IMG/VR virus record: IMGVR_UViG_2531839433_000003
DNA: 21,842 nt
Direction: 5' to 3' (one strand)
Source of the DNA: a virus
Taxonomy: Duplodnaviria > Heunggongvirae > Uroviricota > Caudoviricetes
The position numbers and the translations under genes were made by a program. Below the pieces are notes generated by a model, which was not told where the DNA came from, did not search any database, and was given only the letters and a program-made list of their open reading frames with translations. Shown here piece after piece: positions 5,758 to 15,439 of the stretch; the stretch's first letter is position 1, and every line of letters begins with the position of its first letter.

Positions 5758-6611
5758 GCACCATCCTGAAATGGGCGGGAAATAAAACCGCCATTATGTC
5801 CGAACTGAAAAAACACCTTCCTGCTGGCCCGCGACTGGTTGAACCTTTCGCGGGTTCCTGTGCTGTGATGATGGAGACGGATTACCCCAGCTATCTGGTT
5901 GCGGATATTAATCCTGATTTAATCAACCTCTATAAAAAGGTTGCTGCTGATTGTGAATCGTTTATATCTCGCGCCAGAGTTTTATTTGAGATCGCAAACA
6001 GGGAGGTGGCTTATTACAACATAAGGCAGGAGTTTAATTACTCCACTGAAATTACTGATTTCATGAAAGCGGTATATTTCCTGTATCTCAATCGTCACGG
6101 TTACCGTGGTTTATGTCGCTATAACAAGAGCGGGCATTTCAACATTCCCTACGGTAATTATAAAAATCCGTATTTCCCTGAAAAAGAAATTCGCGCATTT
6201 GCAGAAAAGGCCCAGCGAGCAACGTTTATCTGCGCCAGCTTTGATGAAACGCTGGCGATGTTGAAGGCGGGGGATGTGGTGTATTGCGATCCGCCGTATG
6301 ACGGTAAGTTTTCCGGCTATCACACTGATGGTTTCACTGAAGATGACCAGTATCACCTGGCATCTGTTCTTGAACATCGGTCATCAGAAGGACATCCGGT
6401 CATTGTTTCTAACAGTGACACATCCCTGATCCGTTCGCTGTATCGCAATTTTACTCACCACTACATCAAGGCAAAACGCAGCATCGGTGTGGCAGCTGGC
6501 GAGGGTAAATCAGCAACAGAAATCATTGCTGTTTCCGGGCCGCGCTGCTGGGTGGGATTTGATTATTCGCGTGGCGTGGATAGTTCTGCCGTGTACGGAG
6601 TACGTGCATGA
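5754..6611 (+). CDS. dam: DNA adenine methyltransferase, Dam-like (GATC N6-adenine)
   Basis: N-terminal LKWAGNK SAM-binding motif and DPPY catalytic motif (DNA 6288..6299); collinear resemblance to E. coli Dam. Translationally coupled on both sides. Confidence 0.85.
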
Positions 6612-9022
6612 GCCATGCCGATATGAACAACTGCTGCGGCTTTAACGAGGCTGCCGCATCGTTCTCATGGAACAGCCCGAAAAAGGCCATTAACCCTTAT
6701 CTGGACCCGGCGGAAGTTGCGCCGGTTTCTGCGCTTTCAAACCTGATCACTCTGTACGCTGCCGATAACGAGCAGGAACAGCTGCGCCGCGAGGCACTGA
6801 GTGATCAGGTCTGGGAGCGTTATTTCTTTAATGAATCCCGTGATCCTGTCCAGCGCGAAATGGAGCAGGATAAGCTCATTAGTCGGGCAAAGCTGGCGCA
6901 TGAGCAGCAGCGTTTTAATCCAGATATGGTCATTCTGGCGGACGTCAATGCCCAGCCTTCCCATATCAGCAAGCCGCTGATGCAACGTATTGAATACTTC
7001 AGCAGCCTTGGCAGGCCAAAGGCTTATTCCCGCTATTTGCGTGAGACGATTAAGCCATGTCTGGAACGGCTGGAGCATGTACGCGACAGTCAGCTATCCA
7101 CTTCTTTTCGCTTTATGGCAAGCCATGAAGGGCTGGACGGCCTGCTGATTCTGCCTGAAATGAGTCAGGATCAGGTGAAACGCCTGTCCACCCTTGTTGC
7201 TGCGCATATGAGCATGTGCCTTGATGCAGCTTGTGGCGATTTGTATGCCACCGATGACGTTAAGCCTGAAGAAATCCGCAAGACATGGGAAAAGGTGACA
7301 GCAGAAACCCTGCGACTGGATGTCATACCGCCTGCGTTTGAGCAACTCCGCCGGAAAAGAAACCGCCGTAAACCCGTGCCTTATGAACTCATTCCGGGTT
7401 CGCTGGCGCGTATGTTGTGCGCCGACTGGTGGTACCGGAAATTATGGAAGATGCGTTGCGAATGGCGGGAAGAGCAGTTGCGTGCTGTTTGCCTGGTCAG
7501 CAAAAAAGCATCTCCCTATGTCAGCTATGAAGCCGTGATGCATAAACGTGAGCAGCGCCGTAAGTCGCTGGAGTTTTTCCGTTCTCATGAACTGGTGAAC
7601 GAAGACGGCGACACGCTGGACATGGAGGATGTGGTAAACGCCAGCAGCAGCAACCCTGCGCATCGCCGCAATGAGATGATGGCCTGTGTTAAAGGTCTGG
7701 AGCTTATCGCGGAAATGCGTGGTGACTGCGCCGTTTTCTACACCATCACCTGTCCGTCACGTTTCCATTCCACGCTAAATAACGGCAGGCCCAACCCGAC
7801 CTGGACAAATACGACGGTAAGACAAAGCAGTGATTATCTGGTCGGCATGTTTGCTGCATTTCGTAAGGCGATGCACAAAGCCGGATTGCGCTGGTATGGC
7901 GTGCGGGTGGCTGAGCCGCATCATGACGGTACAGTTCACTGGCACCTGTTGTGTTTTATGCGCAAAAAAGATCGCCGCGCCATTACTGCTTTGTTGCGTA
8001 AGTTTGCCATTCGTGAAGACCGCGAGGAGCTGGGTAATAACACGGGACCACGCTTTAAGTCTGAGCTGATAAACCCGCGCAAAGGTACGCCAACAAGCTA
8101 CATCGCGAAATACATCAGTAAGAACATTGACGGGCGTGGTCTGGCTGGCGAGATCAGCAAGGAAACGGGTAAATCCCTGCGTGATAACGCTGAATACGTT
8201 AATGCCTGGGCGTCTCTGCATCGTGTTCAGCAATTCCGCTTCTTTGGCATTCCGGGGCGTCAGGCTTACCGTGAACTGCGATTGCTGGCTGGTCAGGCGG
8301 CAAGGCAACAGGGGGACAAAAAAGCAGGTGCGCCGGTACTGGATAACCCGCGCCTTGATGCAATCCTGGCTGCTGCTGATGCTGGTTGTTTTGCCACCTA
8401 CATCATGAAGCAGGGCGGCGTACTGGTTCCCCGCAAATATCACCTCATCAGAACTGCTTATGAAATCAACGAAGAACCGACCGCATATGGCGATCACGGT
8501 ATTCGTATTTATGGCATCTGGTCACCCATTGCAGAGGGCAAGATCTGCACTCATGCGGTGAAGTGGAAAATGGTTCGTAAGGCCGTTGACGTTCAGGAGG
8601 CGGCAGCCGACCAGGGCGCTTGCGCCCCTTGGACTCGTGGCAATAACTGTCCCCTTGCTGAAAATTTGAGCCAACAAGGGAACGACAAATCAGCTGATGG
8701 GGATACCAGAACGGACATTACCCGCATGGATGACAAGGAGTTGCACGATTACCTGCACAGTATGAGCAAAAAAGAGCGCCGGGAACTGGCTGCAAGGTTA
8801 CGCCAGGTGAAACCGAAACGGCGTAAAGACTACAAACAGCGAATTACAAACCATCAGCGACAGCAGCTCGTCTATGAACTGAAGTCCAGAGGATTTGATG
8901 GCAGCGAGAAAGAAGTCGATTTACTCCTTCGCGGCGGCAGTATTCCGTCAGGAGCAGGCCTGCGTATCTTCTATCGGAACCAGCGTTTGCAGGAAGATGA
9001 TAAGTGGCGGGAGCTGTATTAA
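6608..9022 (+). CDS. Rolling-circle replication initiator, P2 gpA / 186 RepA family
   Basis: 804 aa with the metal-binding HWHLL motif (7936..7950) and active-site tyrosine motif YIAKYISK (8099..8122). Start overlaps the dam stop. Confidence 0.85.
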
Positions 9023-9116
9023 TTACGCGGGTTAACAATTCGTGCTCTTAATAATACCAGGTATATCAGGCTGATGAACGTAAAAAAACGTTTTACATCA
9101 GTAAGATTATTATATA

Positions 9117-9132
9117 CTGTAAATATAAACAG
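9117..9132. promoter_or_regulatory. LexA box, CTGT-N8-ACAG (ctgtaaatataaacag)
   Basis: Matches the SOS-box core; lies about 45 nt upstream of the 9175 ORF, inside an AT-rich promoter-like region. Confidence 0.5.
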
Positions 9133-9174
9133 TGATTATATATACAGTATTGTTTTGGTGTCATAGGAGGAAAG

Positions 9175-9363
9175 ATGCAGGACTATTTTTTGGAGTCTTT
9201 GAAGCTCCAGCGCATTGATTTTTTTCTTAAGCTTGTAGCGGCTAGTGAGTGTAGTGATGAAGAGAAGGGGCTGGCTCTGCAGTGGGTTTCTGAGTTGACT
9301 GATGAACTCATGGCAAAAATCAGAACTCACGAATACAACCGCTCAATGGACGTCATCAGTTGA
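9175..9363 (+). CDS. Small protein, 62 aa, first gene of a putative SOS-controlled Tum-like module
   Basis: Strong AGGAGG ribosome-binding site 7 nt upstream of the ATG, downstream of the LexA box. Confidence 0.5.
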   Translation: MQDYFLESLKLQRIDFFLKLVAASECSDEEKGLALQWVSELTDELMAKIRTHEYNRSMDVIS

Positions 9364-9373
9364 GGTGACTTTT

Positions 9374-9607
9374 ATGCGCATTGAAATAATGATCGATAAA
9401 GAGCAGAAGATTAGCCAGTCTACCCTGGACGCCCTTGAATCAGAGCTTTACCGCAATCTGCGCCCCCTGTATCCCAAAACGGTAATTCGCATCCGCAAAG
9501 GTAGCTCTAACGGTGTGGAACTGACCGGACTGCAACTGGACGAAGAAAGAAAACAAGTGATGAAAATTATGCAGAAGGTGTGGGAAGACGACAGCTGGCT
9601 GCATTAA
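9374..9607 (+). CDS. DinI-family protein (186 Tum-like C-terminal domain)
   Basis: 77 aa beginning MRIEIMIDKEQ and ending KVWEDDSWLH, which parallels E. coli DinI (MRIEVTIAK...ETWESADDWF). GAGGTGA ribosome-binding site. Confidence 0.65.
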   Translation: MRIEIMIDKEQKISQSTLDALESELYRNLRPLYPKTVIRIRKGSSNGVELTGLQLDEERKQVMKIMQKVWEDDSWLH

Positions 9608-9766
9608 GAAAAGTTGCTGGCGTCTGAACTTGGTTCTGGCGTCAGCAAGGTTGAACAACGAGTACAGTGAGGCGTTAGGTGTGGCGTTTATTTGATGAGT
9701 GAACGCCCGTTCTGCGACAGGTTCGGAGATTAAGGTTGAAACTACGGGCAAAATACCATCTTTTTC

Positions 9767-10192
9767 CTACTTAATTGAGTCCAGTAACAAGTTACAGTTA
9801 CTCTCATTGTAGAGAGAACGAGCAATTAGTGTTACCTGCTTTCCATTTATTCCCGGCTTATCCCATAACACAGCTTCTTGCGACGCCACAAATTCAGCAT
9901 AATCAATTATGCGTTGTTCGTGATCTGGTTCCTCATAGCCAAAGTATGAGAGCGCATCGTTGTAAGCGTGGTAAGCTGCTTTCTGTAATATCTTGATATC
10001 GGCTGTAGGTACTTGCCCCGTGTAGCTAGGATCTAATTGTGTGCTACTGCCATAGAATGCACATGAAAGGTAAGATATTGATTTCTGTTGAGCTTTAGTT
10101 CCTTTCTCATAGTTTTTAGCTGTTACCGCCTGAACTGGGACGCTAACAAAGCTTGCAACCAGAATTAAAATTAATACGTAAAAGCTTTTCAT
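9767..10192 (-). CDS. Secreted/periplasmic protein of unknown function, 141 aa, Sec-type signal peptide
   Basis: N-terminus MKSFYVLILILVASFVSVPVQA followed by a polar mature region; GAGG 5 nt upstream. AT-rich, leftward, at the position and orientation P2 uses for old. Confidence 0.6.
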   Translation of the reverse strand: MKSFYVLILILVASFVSVPVQAVTAKNYEKGTKAQQKSISYLSCAFYGSSTQLDPSYTGQVPTADIKILQKAAYHAYNDALSYFGYEEPDHEQRIIDYAEFVASQEAVLWDKPGINGKQVTLIARSLYNESNCNLLLDSIK

Positions 10193-10465
10193 TTTGACCT
10201 CAGCCGAAACGTTAGAGAGACTATCGAAATTTGTAAAACCCGTGGCGATTCAGTTTGAGATCCTCCCCCTTACATGATTTTTAATCAAATATATGCTTTT
10301 GTAAGCATACCTGTTAACCGAATTATTTATTTTTAGAGATTTTCCGACATACTGATTATACCCGCTGAGGAGTTCACCTTGCGTAAAGTCCGATTCGCTT
10401 TACTCGTCTGTGCATGTCTATGCTGCATGAGATTGCATGATCGTTTGAGGATCGTTTTTGCTAAG

Positions 10466-10489
10466 GCCCGCCAGAACTGGCGGGCTTTT
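10466..10489 (+). terminator. Rho-independent terminator on the plus strand
   Basis: GC-rich hairpin gcccgcc(agaact)ggcgggc followed by TTTT. Confidence 0.5.
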
Positions 10490-10534
10490 GCGTAGATCAT
10501 GCACCTGCATGAAAACCACTACATAAAGCGGGCA

Positions 10535-10553
10535 GGCGTGGCGGGGATACGAG
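10535..10553. other. Probable cos site (P2/186-type cohesive-end sequence)
   Basis: ggcgtggcgggga matches the first 13 nt of the P2/186 cohesive end as I recall it (GGCG[A/T]GGCGGGGAAAGCA). It is embedded in a GC-rich structured island between the replication side and the portal side, where cos lies in P2. Confidence 0.45.
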
Positions 10554-10780
10554 CGCGCGCCGCGGGTTGAAATAGTAAAATTCACTTAGCCTCAGGCCCG
10601 CTGATGGTTTTCTTCTGAAAGGGAGGGCGCGTTTTTGTGCAATCTTGTTTGAAGGGATTTAAATAAATGTTGAATGTGTTCCGGAGTTGGCTGTAGATTT
10701 AGTGTTCTGTCACAAGTTGCAGTGATAGGTAGCAAACCTTTAAAAGGTTCTGCTATTGTTTCATTAAAGATTTATAGTCT

Positions 10781-11380
10781 TTGTCCGAAAATGACATTAA
10801 AGTAGTCGCCTTTAATGTCGTAAGCATGAAGGACAGAGAATTGAACTTAGAGCAGATTGCCAGTCAAAGTATAAGTAACCTTCAGTTTCTCCTCGATACT
10901 TTGAAGATGCCGTTGGCTGTTGGTCCAATCAGTGATGAAGACTATGTGATCCTGACCACAGGATATGCTCAGCTAGAATGGGATTATGGTTTTTCTCGGT
11001 TTGGCAATCGAAGTGATAAGTTTGAATTTTGTTTGAAGCTCCTTGCGGGGCCACTTAGGCATATCCCTTCTGGCGCAGCTATGTGCACCTTTGACGAGGA
11101 CGCTGGAGTCATAGAGATCCATTTTGTGGAATCTTTTGTGAAAGATGATGACGTAGAGCACCCTCTTTACGGCAACATGTTCATGGTTACATTGTGGGCG
11201 GTATATCTTTTTGGTAGCGCGGTTGGGTGTCAAGAGATTCGGATCCCTGAAGCCCTGAATCAAAAAGTTGCTGACCACTATAAAAAATTTGGTTTTAAAG
11301 GTGATATAAGCTTGCTTTCGGCACCTTTTGCTACAATAACTGATGTAGTAAGACGCTACATTACTTCTAAGAAACAGTAG
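10781..11380 (+). CDS. Hypothetical protein, 199 aa from the TTG at 10781 (184 aa if the ATG at 10826 is used)
   Basis: Long ORF in the AT-rich region between cos and the portal gene; start codon uncertain and no clear ribosome-binding site. No family recognised. Confidence 0.45.
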   Translation: MSENDIKVVAFNVVSMKDRELNLEQIASQSISNLQFLLDTLKMPLAVGPISDEDYVILTTGYAQLEWDYGFSRFGNRSDKFEFCLKLLAGPLRHIPSGAAMCTFDEDAGVIEIHFVESFVKDDDVEHPLYGNMFMVTLWAVYLFGSAVGCQEIRIPEALNQKVADHYKKFGFKGDISLLSAPFATITDVVRRYITSKKQ

Positions 11381-11459
11381 ATAAATTTTTGCGCAGTGCT
11401 ACAATGCTGCGCCAAACATCCACCACCGGATGATGAGGCTTGACCTCTAAGAGGAAATC

Positions 11460-11639
11460 ATGACTATGACGCATAGTGACAAGAAAGCTCAGAAGCATTA
11501 CTCAGTATCTGATGTTTTCAGCCGTATGGGCGTCGCGATGGAAGAACTACTTCAAGCGGCCCCACATATGATGCAGGACTGCAAATTTGAAGGAAATGAG
11601 CTGCATGGTAAGCTCAAAGAAAAGCAGAAAGCTGCTTAA
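11460..11639 (+). CDS. Small hypothetical protein, 59 aa
   Basis: GAGG 5 nt upstream of the ATG; followed within 25 nt by a strong intrinsic terminator. Below the ORF-track length cut-off; translated by hand. Confidence 0.5.
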   Translation: MTMTHSDKKAQKHYSVSDVFSRMGVAMEELLQAAPHMMQDCKFEGNELHGKLKEKQKAA

Positions 11640-11661
11640 TTCCATGAAATGCGTTTTGCAT

Positions 11662-11688
11662 GAAGCCCGGTAATACCGGGCTTTTTTA
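11662..11688 (+). terminator. Rho-independent terminator
   Basis: Hairpin agcccgg(taata)ccgggct followed by TTTTTT; sits between the convergent small gene and the portal 3' fragment. Confidence 0.7.
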
Positions 11689-11694
11689 TGCTTG

Positions 11695-11815
11695 CTAGTC
11701 AGTATTAAGCTCATATGGATTGAATCGGACTACCTCTTCACCAAGCCATTCATTTAGCTCCAGCAATCGCTTTTGTAACGGTACTATTTCGTTTCTTGTG
11801 AAGACGCGACTGGCC
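11695..11815 (-). pseudogene. Portal gene (P2 gpQ type) 3' fragment, separated from the rest by the IS66-family insertion
   Basis: Minus-strand frame read by hand through the IS junction encodes ...RLLELNEWLGEEVVRFNPYELNTD then a stop at 11695..11697. Confidence 0.5.
11808..11815. repeat. Target-site duplication gactggcc, left copy
   Basis: Identical 8-mer directly abuts both IS ends (11808..11815 and 14515..14522). Confidence 0.8.
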
Positions 11816-11845
11816 GTAAGCGGCTCGTCAGAACCGTATTGATAT

Positions 11846-13417
11846 TTACTGAGAGCTCAGATCAACTTTCCAGGGCAACAGATCGCGTACCCGGTTTGCC
11901 GGCCAGTCCTGGATATGTTCAATGACGTAGCGCAGCCACTTTTCTGGCTCCACATTGTTCAGACGGCATGTGCCGATCAGCGAGTACAACACCGCCGCAT
12001 GTTCACCACCGCTGTCGGAACCCGCGAACATCCACTTTTTCCGGCCTACGGCCACTCCCCGTAAGGCGTTCTCTGCGATGTTGTTGTCGATTTCCACCCA
12101 GCCATTACTGCAGTACACGTTCAGTGCATCCCACTGTTTCAGCAGGTATGCGAACGCTTTTGCCGTATCTGAGTGACGCGACAGTGTTTTCATCTGTTGC
12201 TGTATCCAGTCATACAGTGACTGCATCAGTGGCGCGGCTCTGGTTTTTCTTGCCGCCAGACGCTGTTCTGCTGAACAGCCCCGGACCTCTGCCTCGATGG
12301 CATACAGTTCACCGATACGCTGCAGGGCTTCCGTGGTGATGTCGGTGGGCGCTCTTGCATGCACATCGTGGATTTTTCTCCGGGCATGAGCCATACACGC
12401 GGCTTCCGTTATTCTGCCGGATTCGTATAACGCCCGGTAACCACCGTAAGCATCGGCCTGAAGCACACCGCTGTAACCGGCCAGGTGATTTTGTGGATGG
12501 ATACCTTTCCGGTCCGGACTGTACGCGAACCAGACCGCCGGGGGCATCTGTGAACCGGCGTTACGGTCATCACGGACGTAGACCCACAGCCGGGCTGTCC
12601 GGGTTTTACCGCTGCCCGGCTCCTGGACCGGGACGGGGATATCATCAGCATGGACTTTACCGGGCATCAGCACATACTGGCGCAGGACGTCATACAGCGG
12701 CTCCAGTAGTTCAGCAACGGCACCTGTCCAGCGCCCCAGTGTGGCACGGCTCAGCTCCACACCCTGACGGCGGTATATCTCTGACTGGCGGTATAACGGC
12801 AGATGGTCTGCATATTTTCCGGTGACGACATGGGCCAGGAGCCCCGCTCCGGCATAACTGCGTGCAATGGGTTTTGAAGGTACTGGTGCCTGCACGATAT
12901 GGTCGCACCGACAACAGGCCAGTTTCGGACGTTGTGTTTCGATAACCTTAAAGGCGCTGCTGATAAGCTCCAGTTGCTCTGACACATCACATCCCAGAGA
13001 ACTGAGTTCACCACCACAGGCAGGACAGCATTCCTCTTCCGGCCGGATAACCCGGGTTTCACGGGGAAGTGAGGCCGGTAACGGTTTACGGGCTGAAGAC
13101 TGGCGCAGGGCGGATGGCAGTACCGGGTCATATTGCTCACCCAGCGTTTCCGCCATTTCTTCCTGAAGTGCGCTGATTCGCTCCTGTGCTTCCTGTATCT
13201 GCCGTTCGGTTTTTGCACGAAGTTTTTCTGAGCTTTTACCGAACTGCATACGTTGCAGTTTCGCAACCAGCGCCTTCAGCCGGTTGATTTCGGAAGCATA
13301 AGCCGCCACCCGCTGTGAGAGCAGGCGGTTGTATTCAGCCATCTGGCGTATGGTGTCCTGTTGCGTCTGCAACAGTGCCCGCAGGCGGGCGTTCTCATGA
13401 GCAAGTGAGGTGTCCAT
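11846..13417 (-). CDS. tnpC: IS66-family transposase (TnpC)
   Basis: 523 aa with an N-terminal coiled-coil/leucine-zipper region and a Cys-rich segment, as in IS66-family TnpC. Confidence 0.85.
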
Positions 13418-13436
13418 ATCCTCACTTTACAACGGG

Positions 13437-13784
13437 TTATATGCGGATTCCAGCGCGTTCCGTTCGTTTCGGGTGCTTCCAGTTGATACCTTCAAGAAGC
13501 ATGGATAACTGAGCCGGAGTAAGGTGCACCTTGCCGTCACGGGTGACTGGCCAGACGAAGCGGCCCCGCTCCAGGCGTTTGGTGAAGAGGCACAGTCCGT
13601 CACTGTCAGCCCACAACACTTTTATCTGGTCACCCCGGCGTCCGCGGAAGATGAACAGGTGTCCGGAGAACGGGTCATCCTTCAGGACGTTCTGAACTTT
13701 TGATGCCAGGCCGTTAAAGCCATTTCGCATATCGGTGATACCTGCAACCAGCCAGATACGCGAACCTGCAGGGAGAGATATCAT
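13437..13784 (-). CDS. tnpB: IS66-family accessory protein TnpB (Orf2)
   Basis: 115 aa, MISLPAGSRIWLVAGITDMR..., as in IS66 Orf2; ATGA overlap with the upstream ORF. Confidence 0.8.
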   Translation of the reverse strand: MISLPAGSRIWLVAGITDMRNGFNGLASKVQNVLKDDPFSGHLFIFRGRRGDQIKVLWADSDGLCLFTKRLERGRFVWPVTRDGKVHLTPAQLSMLLEGINWKHPKRTERAGIRI

Positions 13785-14461
13785 CAGTGGCTGCTCCCTT
13801 TTATTTCGCGGATAAGTGTCTGTAATAACGCCGGCGTCAGTTTACCTTTAAGCCTGAGAGTTCCGGCCGGCAGAACCAGCTCACAACACAGACTGTCGGA
13901 CGGTGTATTTATCTGCTCTGGTTCCTGTGCGGGGGCCGGGATTTTATTATCCGGCTCCGGCGTTAACGTCACGGGAAGCAGTGCCGGCATATTTTTTCCG
14001 GAAGGCAGCAGGCCACCTTTCCGGTATTGATGGCGCCAGTTGAAGAGCAGGTTATCGTTGATTCCGTTTTCCCGGGCGATCTGCGCCACACAGGCTCCGG
14101 GCTGCAGTGACTGCTCCACTAAGGCGATTTTAAACTCATAAGGGAAGTTGGGCCGCCGGGGACGTTTTTTTACCACGGGGGCTTCGGATATAACGGTGCT
14201 TTCAGGACGTACGACTGGTACCGTGGAAAATTGTCCGTAAAGGCAGGCATCAAGTTCCTGCTCCGACATGCCTGCGGGCAAAGGCCACGAAAGGCCAGCT
14301 CTCCGAAAGCGCACGAACATACTACAAACTGTTGATTTTGGTACACCCAGGCGACGCCCGGCCACAACCCGGGGTAAATGTTCTTCAAAGTGAAGACGTA
14401 AAGCTTCAGTGATCCAGGTCCGGTGTTTCATACGATAGTGTCCATTAAAAATGATGGACAT
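13784..14461 (-). CDS. tnpA: IS66-family accessory protein TnpA (Orf1); start uncertain
   Basis: First ORF inside the IS, leftward, coupled to tnpB. The true start may be the internal Met (MKHRTW...). Confidence 0.6.
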   Translation of the reverse strand: MSIIFNGHYRMKHRTWITEALRLHFEEHLPRVVAGRRLGVPKSTVCSMFVRFRRAGLSWPLPAGMSEQELDACLYGQFSTVPVVRPESTVISEAPVVKKRPRRPNFPYEFKIALVEQSLQPGACVAQIARENGINDNLLFNWRHQYRKGGLLPSGKNMPALLPVTLTPEPDNKIPAPAQEPEQINTPSDSLCCELVLPAGTLRLKGKLTPALLQTLIREIKGSSH

Positions 14462-14514
14462 TATTTTTGTAGAGCCGGAGGAAACAGACCAGACGGTTTA
14501 AATGAGCCGGTTAC

Positions 14515-14522
14515 GACTGGCC
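14515..14522. repeat. Target-site duplication gactggcc, right copy
   Basis: Identical to 11808..11815. Confidence 0.8.
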
Positions 14523-15439
14523 TTTTCCACATCCCCAAAACCGCCGGTATTGTTGGGAATGATACCCATCATTTGCGGCGGCACACGATGCGCCGCCATC
14601 ATGTCGTCCCGGCTCACGTTCTTGATATTCAGGAACTCATCCTTCGCCGCCACTTCTGACAACGGGATAATCTGAAGCCCATCCTTTTTGCCGTTAGGCG
14701 AGTACATAAACAGGTTACGGAAGTTACCAGGACCTTTGGCACTTTTCATTGCGTTGCGGAGGTTGTTCACATCCTCCTGGTTCTGCGCGGCGTCGGTCAT
14801 GTACATGATGAAGCCCGCATGGCTGCCGTTGATGTAATACTTCCGGCGGAACAGCGTGGCGGACTCGTTGAGCAGGGCTGACGGAATGGCAGAAAGATAA
14901 CCGGGCAGGCCGTAGATCTCCTGGTTGATGTCCGGCTCCATCAGATGAAAAATGCTGCCTTTCGTGAACTGATACGGCTGGGTTGTCATACCGTATTGCA
15001 CAAACCAGTAGGTATCCAGGTCTAACCCGCGTCGGGTGTATTTTGCCAGAGCAGGCTCAAGGGCTATAACTTCACCGAAGCGGTTCGTGCGTTTCTCCAG
15101 GTAGGCGTTACCAAAAACCAGATAGTCCTGTACAAAACGCGAAAAAGCCTGCTGGCTGAGCAGCGGGTGAGGGATGTAGGTGCTGGTCAGAATGTTGCAC
15201 TTTACTGCAATCGGGGAACTATGATGAACGGCAGCGCGGAAGGTGCGCGCCAGTCCGTCAAAGCTGACGGGCGGCTCATACCAGCGGTCCATCTGTACGC
15301 ATTCCACATAATCCAGCAGCTCTCGGCGGTCCAGAACAGGAACGGGATCGCCGAAGCTGAATGCTTCGGCTGTAGTTTGACTTTTAAGCTGGATCTGTTT
15401 CGTCGCCGCAGCGCGGTTCTTCTTACTCTTTCCCATCAA
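14515..15439 (-). pseudogene. Portal gene (P2 gpQ type) 5' portion, interrupted near its 3' end by the IS
   Basis: ORF 14498..15439 translates to a P2 Q-like portal; its last few codons read into IS sequence. Start overlaps the terminase stop (ATGA). Confidence 0.75.

Follow-up and report, generated by a model that had tools for sequence, protein, structure and literature searches.

A 141-residue protein with a predicted Sec signal peptide, encoded by an accessory cassette next to cos in a 186/Fels-2-type prophage of Escherichia coli

Results

The gene and its locus

The 21,842-nucleotide (nt) stretch of DNA analyzed in this study (IMG/VR virus record IMGVR_UViG_2531839433_000003; hereafter the window, with position 1 at its first letter) was 100% identical to a prophage in enterotoxigenic Escherichia coli (ETEC) strains, e.g., E. 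coli TW11681 and 504239. This prophage is a 186/Fels-2-type member of the P2 family, and next to its cohesive-end site (cos) it carries a gene for a protein of 141 amino acids (aa), which is the subject of this report. The features of the gene and of its immediate surroundings were as follows.

9767-10192, minus strand: open reading frame (ORF) of the 141-aa precursor, 426 bp including the stop codon, with an ATG start (RefSeq WP_000834900.1, PHROG 7437)
10127-10192, minus strand: predicted Sec signal peptide (signal peptidase I type), codons 1-22, MKSFYVLILILVASFVSVPVQA, from a rule-based analysis, with cleavage predicted after VQA
9770-10126, minus strand: mature domain of 119 aa, from the family alignment and an AlphaFold2 prediction of a five-helix bundle
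10198-10201, minus strand: Shine-Dalgarno sequence GAGG, 5 nt before the ATG, read from the sequence
10215-10298, minus strand: decayed remnant of the last 26 codons of an upstream partner gene, with an in-frame stop, from tblastn and DNA alignment
10288-10317, minus strand: candidate sigma-70 promoter, TTAACA-18 nt-TATATT, matching at 10/12 positions in a consensus scan
9679-10409, 731 bp, unstranded: inserted cassette (moron), delimited by comparison with phage 500465-1, which is without it
10410-10560 (150 bp), unstranded: cos region, part of the backbone and outside the gene, where linear phage records end

The initial annotation of this DNA had described a 141-aa protein encoded on the strand opposite to its neighbours, with a Sec signal peptide and two cysteines in the mature part, all of which was confirmed at 9767-10192 on the minus strand. 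The right-hand coordinate that it gave, 10340, falls inside the upstream non-coding part; the start codon of the ORF is at 10192, and the inserted cassette is 9679-10409. The precursor matched the profile of PHROG 7437 over its full length (residues 1-141 of 141, E = 9.4e-98), a family annotated in PHROG as "unknown function". The Shine-Dalgarno GAGG was kept in the Klebsiella copies of the gene and was AAGG in the Hafnia copy; a copy in a lambdoid prophage was without it (GAAA).

The signal peptide was assigned from a positively charged n-region, an h-region of at least 10 residues, small residues at -3 and -1, and absence of a lipobox cysteine. The n-region was MKS with a charge of +1 (K2), the core comprised 18 uncharged hydrophobic residues (residues 3-20) with a mean Kyte-Doolittle value of 2.4, the cleavage motif V-Q-A/V lay after residue 22 (MKSFYVLILILVASFVSVPVQA/VTAK), and no lipobox was found in the 141-aa precursor. 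The predicted mature protein of 119 aa has a molecular mass of 13.3 kDa, a pI of 5.3 and exactly two cysteines (Cys44 and Cys133). These n/h/c features, together with the same architecture in the family, supported the proposed export as far as sequence analysis goes, and the 141-aa protein is almost certainly exported to the periplasm.

To delimit the cassette, the window was compared with Escherichia phage 500465-1, in which the counterpart of window 9000-9678 is followed, 7 bp on, by that of window 10410-10560. Since these flanks are nearly contiguous in the phage, 9679-10409 is an insertion. In Fels-2, the same interval is occupied by a different gene, STM2726. The GC content of the cassette was approximately 0.40, compared with approximately 0.53 in the backbone. 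Its sharp boundaries, its absence from a close relative, its deviant GC content, its orientation opposite to the neighbouring genes and its occurrence in unrelated phage backgrounds showed that the 141-aa gene is an accessory cassette, i.e., a moron, probably autonomous, of a 186/Fels-2-type P2-like prophage, lying between the DinI/Tum-like gene and cos.

The cos region was assigned to 10410-10560 because the linear sequence records of P2-like phages obtained from virions (Salmonella phage SEN8, Escherichia phages Cartapus and D8, and Yersinia phage YpM_115) start or end within this segment or at most approximately 50 bp from it. It contained a hairpin, GCCCGCCAG-AA-CTGGCGGGC-TTTT, at approximately 10467-10490. 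The sequence GGCGTGGCGGGGA at 10525-10537 resembles the start of the 186/P2 cohesive end; the full 19-nt cohesive-end sequence was unmatched within 3 mismatches, so that the assignment of cos relies on the ends of the linear records.

The layout of the locus was A, orf62, DinI/Tum, the cassette (minus strand), cos, a second variable region (10561 to approximately 11690) and Q, with two further plus-strand genes between cos and the portal gene. In this layout, the right arm of the packaged genome ends with the 141-aa gene, which reads toward, i.e., convergently with, the early operon. The genes on either side of it are on the plus strand, so that the opposite orientation noted in the initial annotation was correct, as was the likeness drawn there to the position of old in P2, namely the last gene before cos on the replication arm, directed against the early operon.

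The interval from gpA to gpQ of P2-like phages has been described as a hotspot rich in anti-phage cargo (Rousset et al., PMC9122126). Our comparison indicated that this hotspot is really two slots parted by cos. The left-arm slot, analyzed over the 2.5 kb that follow cos, held at least 23 unrelated classes of cargo among 34 loci with the 141-aa gene cassette (28 at 98.8% identity or higher and six at approximately 92%), examples being AIPR, nSTAND and DUF4325/STAS-like sets. The right-arm slot, from DinI to cos, occurred in three states only: empty, occupied by STM2726, or occupied by the 141-aa gene cassette.

An imperfect hairpin followed by a U-run, in the minus-strand direction only (…GCCAGCAACUUUUCUU; CUUUUCUU), was located at 9611-9645, 120-155 nt past the stop codon of the 141-aa gene. 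It belongs to the backbone just past the DinI stop codon and is present also in phages without the cassette; it could terminate leftward transcription coming from the cos side. An Rfam scan of 8800-12000 returned nothing.

Selection on the gene and the protein family

To estimate constraint, the ratio of nonsynonymous to synonymous substitution rates (dN/dS) was calculated by the Nei-Gojobori method between copies from E. coli, Klebsiella, Hafnia and a lambdoid prophage. For the mature part, it was 0.14-0.21 in all comparisons; for the whole gene, it was 0.18-0.28 against the Klebsiella, Hafnia and lambdoid copies. The signal-peptide codons evolved faster, with a dN/dS of 0.45-0.85 in the more distant pairs, and weaker constraint on such codons is usual. 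The gene was carried by 101 of 5426 complete E. coli genomes (approximately 2%), in all of which the ORF was intact at 98.8% identity or higher; the carriers came from humans, livestock, birds and water and included ETEC strains. The low dN/dS, the intact ORF in 101 genomes and the architecture kept in distant relatives show that the 141-aa ORF is a genuine gene under constraint and did not arise by chance.

Seven clusters of relatives came from a word-indexed search of 5.8 billion proteins, and an exhaustive profile search of 1.84 billion representatives gave 17 hits, approximately 14 of which were full-length relatives of 126-168 aa. The n/h/c architecture of the signal peptide was kept in 22 of 22 members examined, with divergence of the signal-peptide sequence itself. 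Every full-length member had two mature cysteines, 82-92 residues apart; all 22 had exactly two mature cysteines, at the family-conserved positions in all but one protein, P0005 of Enterobacter roggenkampii. In the 15 aligned members, whose identity to the window protein went down to 24%, C44, W110, Y128, N132 and C133 were invariant, and the best-conserved stretch was I-I-D-Y-A-E-F-V-A-S-Q-E-A-V-L-W-D-K-P-G. In P0005, a lipobox, L-S-A-C, replaces the signal peptidase I site, and the C-terminus is truncated with loss of the second conserved cysteine; P0005 represents a variant that is a lipoprotein or else a copy that has been damaged.

No match to the 141-aa protein was found in Pfam (E ≤ 0.1), NCBIfam or PADLOC (E ≤ 1). 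A Pfam scan of the 15 family members at E ≤ 5 gave scattered noise in single members and no common family, and a profile of the 15 members matched no PDB sequence at E ≤ 10. The 141-aa protein had no tblastn match in 50,697 phage records, the family motifs found no relative in GTDB representative genomes, and the protein accessions were mentioned by no paper in the literature collection that was searched. Taken together, these comparisons point to a family that is rare, uncharacterised and without detectable relatives; it is exchanged among several temperate phage types and plasmids. RefSeq, PHROGs and the supplementary table of Rousset et al. already contain the gene product as a hypothetical protein, and a low-GC, opposite-strand moron for an exported protein, next to cos in a P2-like prophage, is a familiar kind.

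Predicted structure of the mature protein

The mature protein was modeled with AlphaFold2 from an alignment of 12 sequences after removal of the signal peptide. The mean predicted local distance difference test score (pLDDT) was 93.1 and the predicted template modeling score (pTM) was 0.86, and five helices were predicted, at mature residues 3-31, 41-61, 69-88, 98-108 and 111-118. The model places Cys44 within helix 1 and Cys133 where helix 5 begins. Fold comparison gave scores of 5.8 for the PulS pilotin, 5.6 for Rap2a and 5.5 for Tai4, no higher than for many unrelated proteins; T4 Spackle was not among the top 60 fold matches, and a Foldseek search of predicted viral structures found nothing with E < 0.8. 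The predicted fold is a simple helical bundle without an identifiable relative, giving generic matches only. The structure prediction and fold search proposed in the initial annotation therefore yielded a confident five-helix model and no specific fold relative.

Loss of an upstream partner gene

In Hafnia and in an element of K. aerogenes, a gene for a protein of 215 or 219 aa lies 20-74 nt upstream of the family gene, in the same orientation. In these partner proteins, two transmembrane helices at the N-terminus are followed by a C-terminal domain of approximately 165 aa; they were 29% identical to each other (E = 3e-18), and the adjoining family members were approximately 32% identical. The genes of the partner family, which were recognized by homology and synteny and had no domain hit, were as follows.

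Locus L010, 4333-4980: partner-family gene
Locus L003, 5267-5926: partner-family gene
Locus L057, 434-1090: partner-family gene

The DNA similarity between the window and Hafnia reached 107 nt upstream of the start codon, over the last 26 codons of the partner. By tblastn, the partner remnant showed 57% protein identity in the window and 64% in the Klebsiella copies, and it was interrupted by a stop codon in both. These alignments indicate that the cassette in the P2 slot descends from a two-gene arrangement in which the first gene has been lost, and that the 141-aa gene is the orphaned second gene. The E. coli and Klebsiella cassettes have the same truncation of the partner, yet the surviving gene showed a dN/dS of approximately 0.19 between them; judged from this constraint, the 141-aa gene must have a function that is independent of the partner.

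The partner preceded the family gene in only two of the 14 neighbourhoods described below (Hafnia and K. aerogenes). In L057, the gene after the partner homologue encodes an unrelated tail-anchored protein. The K. aerogenes homologue was found by synteny; the search of 5.8 billion proteins gave only one further cluster of the partner family, and no member was found in the phage and plasmid collections. The partner family was set aside as a key to function, being too rare, with one further homologue among 5.8 billion proteins.

The candidate sigma-70 promoter straddles the junction of the partner remnant and new DNA. Its spacer contains a palindrome, TATGCTT-ACAA-AAGCATA (10292-10309), the core of which, ATGCTTACAAAAGCAT, is conserved in the Klebsiella copies.

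Neighbourhoods of the relatives

Fourteen neighbourhoods of family members were examined, the window being excluded. The Klebsiella copies (90% identical) occupied the same slot of P2-like prophages with different adjoining cargo. The Hafnia copy (77% identical) lay in a P2-like prophage between tail genes S and V, and another copy of 77% identity was the last gene of a lambdoid prophage, past the tail fibres and adjoining the trp operon. Distant members were found in elements inserted beside eco-mqo, directly after the integrase, and likewise behind the integrase in another phage-like element; at the eco-mqo site, a member also occurred within a run of small genes with no integrase in view. 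Other settings were the end of an icd-located prophage, a Salmonella plasmid, where the gene adjoined a mer transposon, and a position next to ParA/ParG. Further members were located on IncFIB non-mobilizable plasmids of 105-115 kb that have phage genes, on the strand opposite to their neighbours. Among these plasmids, NZ_CP010244 and NZ_CP057633 (L058 and L059; approximately 105-113 kb) are probably phage-plasmids. In both of them, a gene with the annotation LprI-family lysozyme inhibitor lay approximately 3 kb from the family member. The initial annotation had counted a lack of conservation in other prophage accessory sites against its reading; recurrence was found in P2-like, lambdoid, satellite-like and phage-plasmid accessory slots.

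A gene with a recognisable domain of a type VI secretion system (T6SS) or a bacteriocin was found in 0 of the 14 neighbourhoods. The relatives often lay within co-directional, often overlapping runs of genes for small envelope proteins (L003, 5267-7635; L056, 1852-5917; L060, 3672-5438; L053; and L055, 1574-2355). The proteins of these runs had Sec signal peptides or lipoboxes, several had two cysteines, some were membrane-anchored, and none belonged to a known family; ten neighbouring proteins taken from related loci had no match in PHROG or NCBIfam. Exported proteins of 157 aa (L003) and 165 aa (L056) proved to be homologues (32% identity, E = 1.6e-22), both ending in an LYxxxNCDLL motif like that of the 141-aa family. 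Their status as distant paralogues of the family was not established, hhalign giving a probability of 17% over 18 residues.

The site between eco (ecotin) and mqo was occupied in three Enterobacterales genomes (L003, L054 and L056) by small integrase/HNH elements or their remnants. Each of these elements carried a different envelope-protein cargo straight after the integrase, and L057 and L056 had backbone genes in common.

Other genes of the prophage

The plus-strand order of the window was CI-type repressor, CII, Fil, Dam, A, a 62-aa ORF and the DinI/Tum-like gene; further to the right, the portal gene Q and the terminase gene were on the minus strand. The features referred to above outside the cassette were as follows.

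6608-9022, plus strand: replication endonuclease A (ORF list, Pfam/PHROG and RefSeq)
9175-9363, plus strand: 62-aa ORF (PHROG 698)
9374-9607, plus strand: DinI-like (Tum-type) gene, the convergent neighbour of the 141-aa gene (Pfam DinI, 1.3e-22; RefSeq annotation; TumB note in the Fels-2 record)
10781-11380, plus strand: gene for a 184/199-aa protein (PHROG 4350; RefSeq start 10826), left-arm cargo between cos and Q
11460-11639, plus strand: gene for a 59-aa protein (PHROG 2741), left-arm cargo between cos and Q
11816-14514, 2699 bp, inside Q: ISCro1 of the IS66 family (tnpA, tnpB and DDE transposase), with an 8-bp target duplication, GACTGGCC, at 11808-11815 and 14515-14522

The start of the DinI-like gene differed between the mechanically called ORF (9302-9607, 101 aa, overlapping the 62-aa ORF) and RefSeq, in which a 77-aa product starts from 9374; the Pfam DinI match spanned residues 38-100 of the 101-aa long form. 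The insertion sequence (IS) ISCro1 splits the portal gene, of which 11695-11814 is left as a 3' remnant and 14513-15436 as the 5' part. Because of this split, the prophage in the window cannot make a portal; it is defective and should be unable to form capsids.

The 184/199-aa and 59-aa genes fill the slot usually held by defence systems. No credible match was found for either protein in Pfam, NCBIfam or PADLOC (the 59-aa protein had a sub-threshold NCBIfam hit), nor was there a credible PDB sequence match for the 184/199-aa protein. A strong terminator hairpin was located at 11662-11684, 3' of the 59-aa gene.

Discussion

Proposed function and comparison with known systems

The 141-aa protein probably protects the cell envelope of the host, and the roles suggested in the initial annotation, superinfection exclusion or lysogenic conversion, would be plausible. 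We tentatively put forward, as the reading placed first among several, that the 141-aa protein may be a phage-directed periplasmic binder giving superinfection exclusion. After export and cleavage, the 119-aa mature protein would fold in the periplasm as a five-helix bundle with a disulfide between helices 1 and 5. The gene would be expressed in the lysogen from its own promoter, and the mature protein would act as a stoichiometric binder, a mode of action suggested by the small size of the protein, by the lack of any catalytic or cofactor motif in it and by the many unrelated kinds of temperate element in which its gene is found. The bound target would be an envelope-attacking protein entering the periplasm from outside, the likeliest being one that a superinfecting phage delivers, e.g., an ejection protein or a cell-wall hydrolase associated with the tail, and the outcome would be superinfection exclusion in the manner of T4 Spackle. 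Binding is favoured by the finding that no enzyme or cofactor family was matched in Pfam, NCBIfam, PADLOC or PDB sequences, and by the predicted architecture, a small five-helix bundle of the periplasm with one probable disulfide, which agrees in design with two neutralisers of injected cell-wall hydrolases whose structures were solved by experiment, T4 Spackle (PMC7677548) and Tai4/Rap2a (PMC3852654). The carriers and the locus were our reasons for placing the phage-directed version first.

Spackle (gp61.3) of T4 is periplasmic and blocks the gp5 tail lysozyme of superinfecting phage by binding (PMC7677548). Like Spackle, the present protein is phage-encoded and small, has a signal peptide and is predicted to be periplasmic and to have five helices; in Spackle, a disulfide joins helix 1 to the C-terminal part (PMC7677548). 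Unlike it, the present protein has 119 mature residues instead of 75 and is encoded by a temperate-phage moron instead of an early lytic gene of a virulent phage. The Tai4/Rap proteins sterically block peptidoglycan endopeptidases injected by the T6SS, and Rap2a has a disulfide between alpha1 and alpha4 (PMC3852654). A signal peptide, a five-helix bundle and a single structural disulfide, which is inferred for the present protein, are likewise features of Tai4, Rap2a and Rap1a (PMC3852654), whereas no recognisable effector or T6SS gene lay near the family in the 14 neighbourhoods. Membership of the Tai4/Rap group was rejected: no PDB chain was matched at E ≤ 10 despite the presence of Tai4/Rap structures in PDB, and the members had no Pfam family in common. 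The resemblance to Spackle and to Tai4/Rap, drawn here by analogy, appears to be one of principle only and not of ancestry.

Sim of the temperate phage P1 is a periplasmic superimmunity protein. Its signal peptide is cleaved, and it stops infection at a step that follows adsorption. Sim is approximately twice as large as the 141-aa protein, which had no tblastn match among the 50,697 phage records, where P1 is covered only if it is in the collection. P2 Old is a cytoplasmic protein of approximately 590 aa that combines an ATPase domain with a TOPRIM nuclease domain; Tin, too, is cytoplasmic. An OLD-family nuclease was ruled out for the present gene, which encodes 141 aa with no Pfam match at E ≤ 0.1 and has position alone in common with old; a known defence system was likewise discarded, no PADLOC family being matched at E ≤ 1. 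What the present gene does have in common with old and tin is its accessory status and its location: it follows the replication genes, adjoins cos, faces the early operon and falls within the gpA-gpQ hotspot (PMC9122126). The gene is also similar to neaT, a moron of a P2-like prophage in CFT073, in being a single, low-GC, rare, opposite-strand gene that occurs in other phage types too (PMC3573123); neaT differs in lying at moron position 2 (G-FI) and in encoding a membrane acyltransferase of unrelated sequence with a virulence phenotype (PMC3573123).

Several observations weigh against superinfection exclusion by a phage-directed binder. No specific homology points to any target, and membership of the Spackle family was rejected, since hhalign gave a probability of 5% with only the signal peptide aligned and there was no PDB profile or tblastn match. 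The presumed DsbA-made disulfide between Cys44 and Cys133, which would lock the bundle, is deduced from the invariance of the cysteines and not from coordinates. The candidate promoter is a consensus match only, and the number of such sites in the region equals the chance expectation. The hypervariable defence cargo and the 141-aa gene are on opposite sides of cos, and the slot of the latter has few alternative states; location in a defence hotspot is therefore weaker as evidence than it would seem. Furthermore, Table S5A of Rousset et al. lists WP_000834900 (NZ_CP025859) and its allele WP_021561694 as "hypothetical", outside the tested systems (PMC9122126).

Alternative explanations

A role that concerns the host and not competing phages was considered in two forms. 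The protein could be a lysogenic-conversion factor that alters host physiology, such as a periplasmic chaperone or stress protein, a modulator of a sensor or transporter, or an animal-host factor. Moron sites of P2-like phages do carry non-defence genes, including neaT in CFT073 (PMC3573123) and cytolethal distending toxin (PMC9122126), and both the spread of the gene over phage types and plasmids and its occurrence in E. coli from humans, livestock, birds and water, ETEC included, fit a gene of benefit to the host. There was, however, no similarity to a known chaperone, sensor ligand or virulence factor, and the gene is rare (101/5426 complete genomes) with no evident association with a pathotype, so that we regard conversion as rather unlikely. 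The other form, which we judge unlikely, is an orphan immunity protein that shields the host from competitors by countering one of their periplasm-acting toxins, e.g., a peptidoglycan amidase or glycosidase of a T6SS, or else a bacteriocin of the colicin M or pesticin type. The physical design predicted for the protein is that of Tai4/Rap (periplasmic, five helices, one structural disulfide), an orphan gene with the remnant of an upstream gene is the layout typical of orphan immunity genes, and the runs of small exported two-cysteine proteins in which relatives occur are like poly-immunity arrays. On the other hand, none of the 14 neighbourhoods had a recognisable T6SS or bacteriocin domain, no PDB profile match at E ≤ 10 and no Pfam family matched by the 15 members was obtained, and the upstream partner is a membrane protein with two transmembrane helices, not a secreted effector. 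Toxin immunity was ranked lower because no effector-linked member was found.

The remnant of the partner gene raises the further explanation that the protein is tied to the 215-aa partner with two transmembrane helices, e.g., as a periplasmic inhibitor, an antidote or an antiholin-like protein, in which case the E. coli copy would be a leftover or would act only on incoming elements that express the partner. Although the two genes are adjacent on the same strand (20-74 nt) in two contexts, with family members approximately 32% identical and partners 29% identical, and although the 3' end of the partner survives upstream of the gene in the window, we consider this explanation improbable: the partner family is extremely rare and was present in only 2/14 neighbourhoods, its third homologue (L057) is followed by an unrelated tail-anchored protein, and the orphan copies of E. 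coli and Klebsiella are under purifying selection. A decaying or neutral passenger ORF without function is already disfavoured and appears highly improbable. It would agree with the facts that neither function nor family is known and that the prophage itself is defective through the IS in the portal gene, but it would leave unexplained the dN/dS of 0.14-0.21 over four contexts, the cysteines and aromatic residues invariant in 15 aligned members with identity down to 24%, the intact ORF at 98.8% identity or higher in all 101 E. coli carriers, and the confidently predicted fold.

Significance

Work on prophage defence hotspots has so far dealt mostly with cytoplasmic systems that sense or cut nucleic acids. 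To our knowledge, there are few cases of prophage-encoded protection at the level of the envelope (Spackle, Sim, Cor and Llp), and automated pipelines miss such proteins. The 141-aa gene is a clean single-gene candidate for protection of this kind, with only 426 bp, a confident structural model, and carriers of four or five unrelated temperate-element types. If the protein has no such phenotype, it is an ordinary hypothetical moron. If it does block phage entry or a periplasmic toxin, as in the phage-directed reading that we place first or in toxin immunity, it would represent a new protein family for that job.

A wider and doubtful extension is that the family may be a new, independently evolved class of periplasmic "shield" proteins, exchanged as single-gene cassettes by temperate phages, satellites and phage-plasmids of Enterobacterales, that neutralise proteins of competing phages or bacterial weapons which degrade the cell wall or breach the envelope. 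Were this so, the runs of small exported two-cysteine proteins would be mobile periplasmic poly-immunity arrays, and the cos-adjacent right-arm slot would be a dedicated site of envelope protection, distinct from the cytoplasmic defence cargo across cos. If the 141-aa protein indeed protects the envelope, the P2 hotspot would consist of two slots with different kinds of cargo and cos between them.

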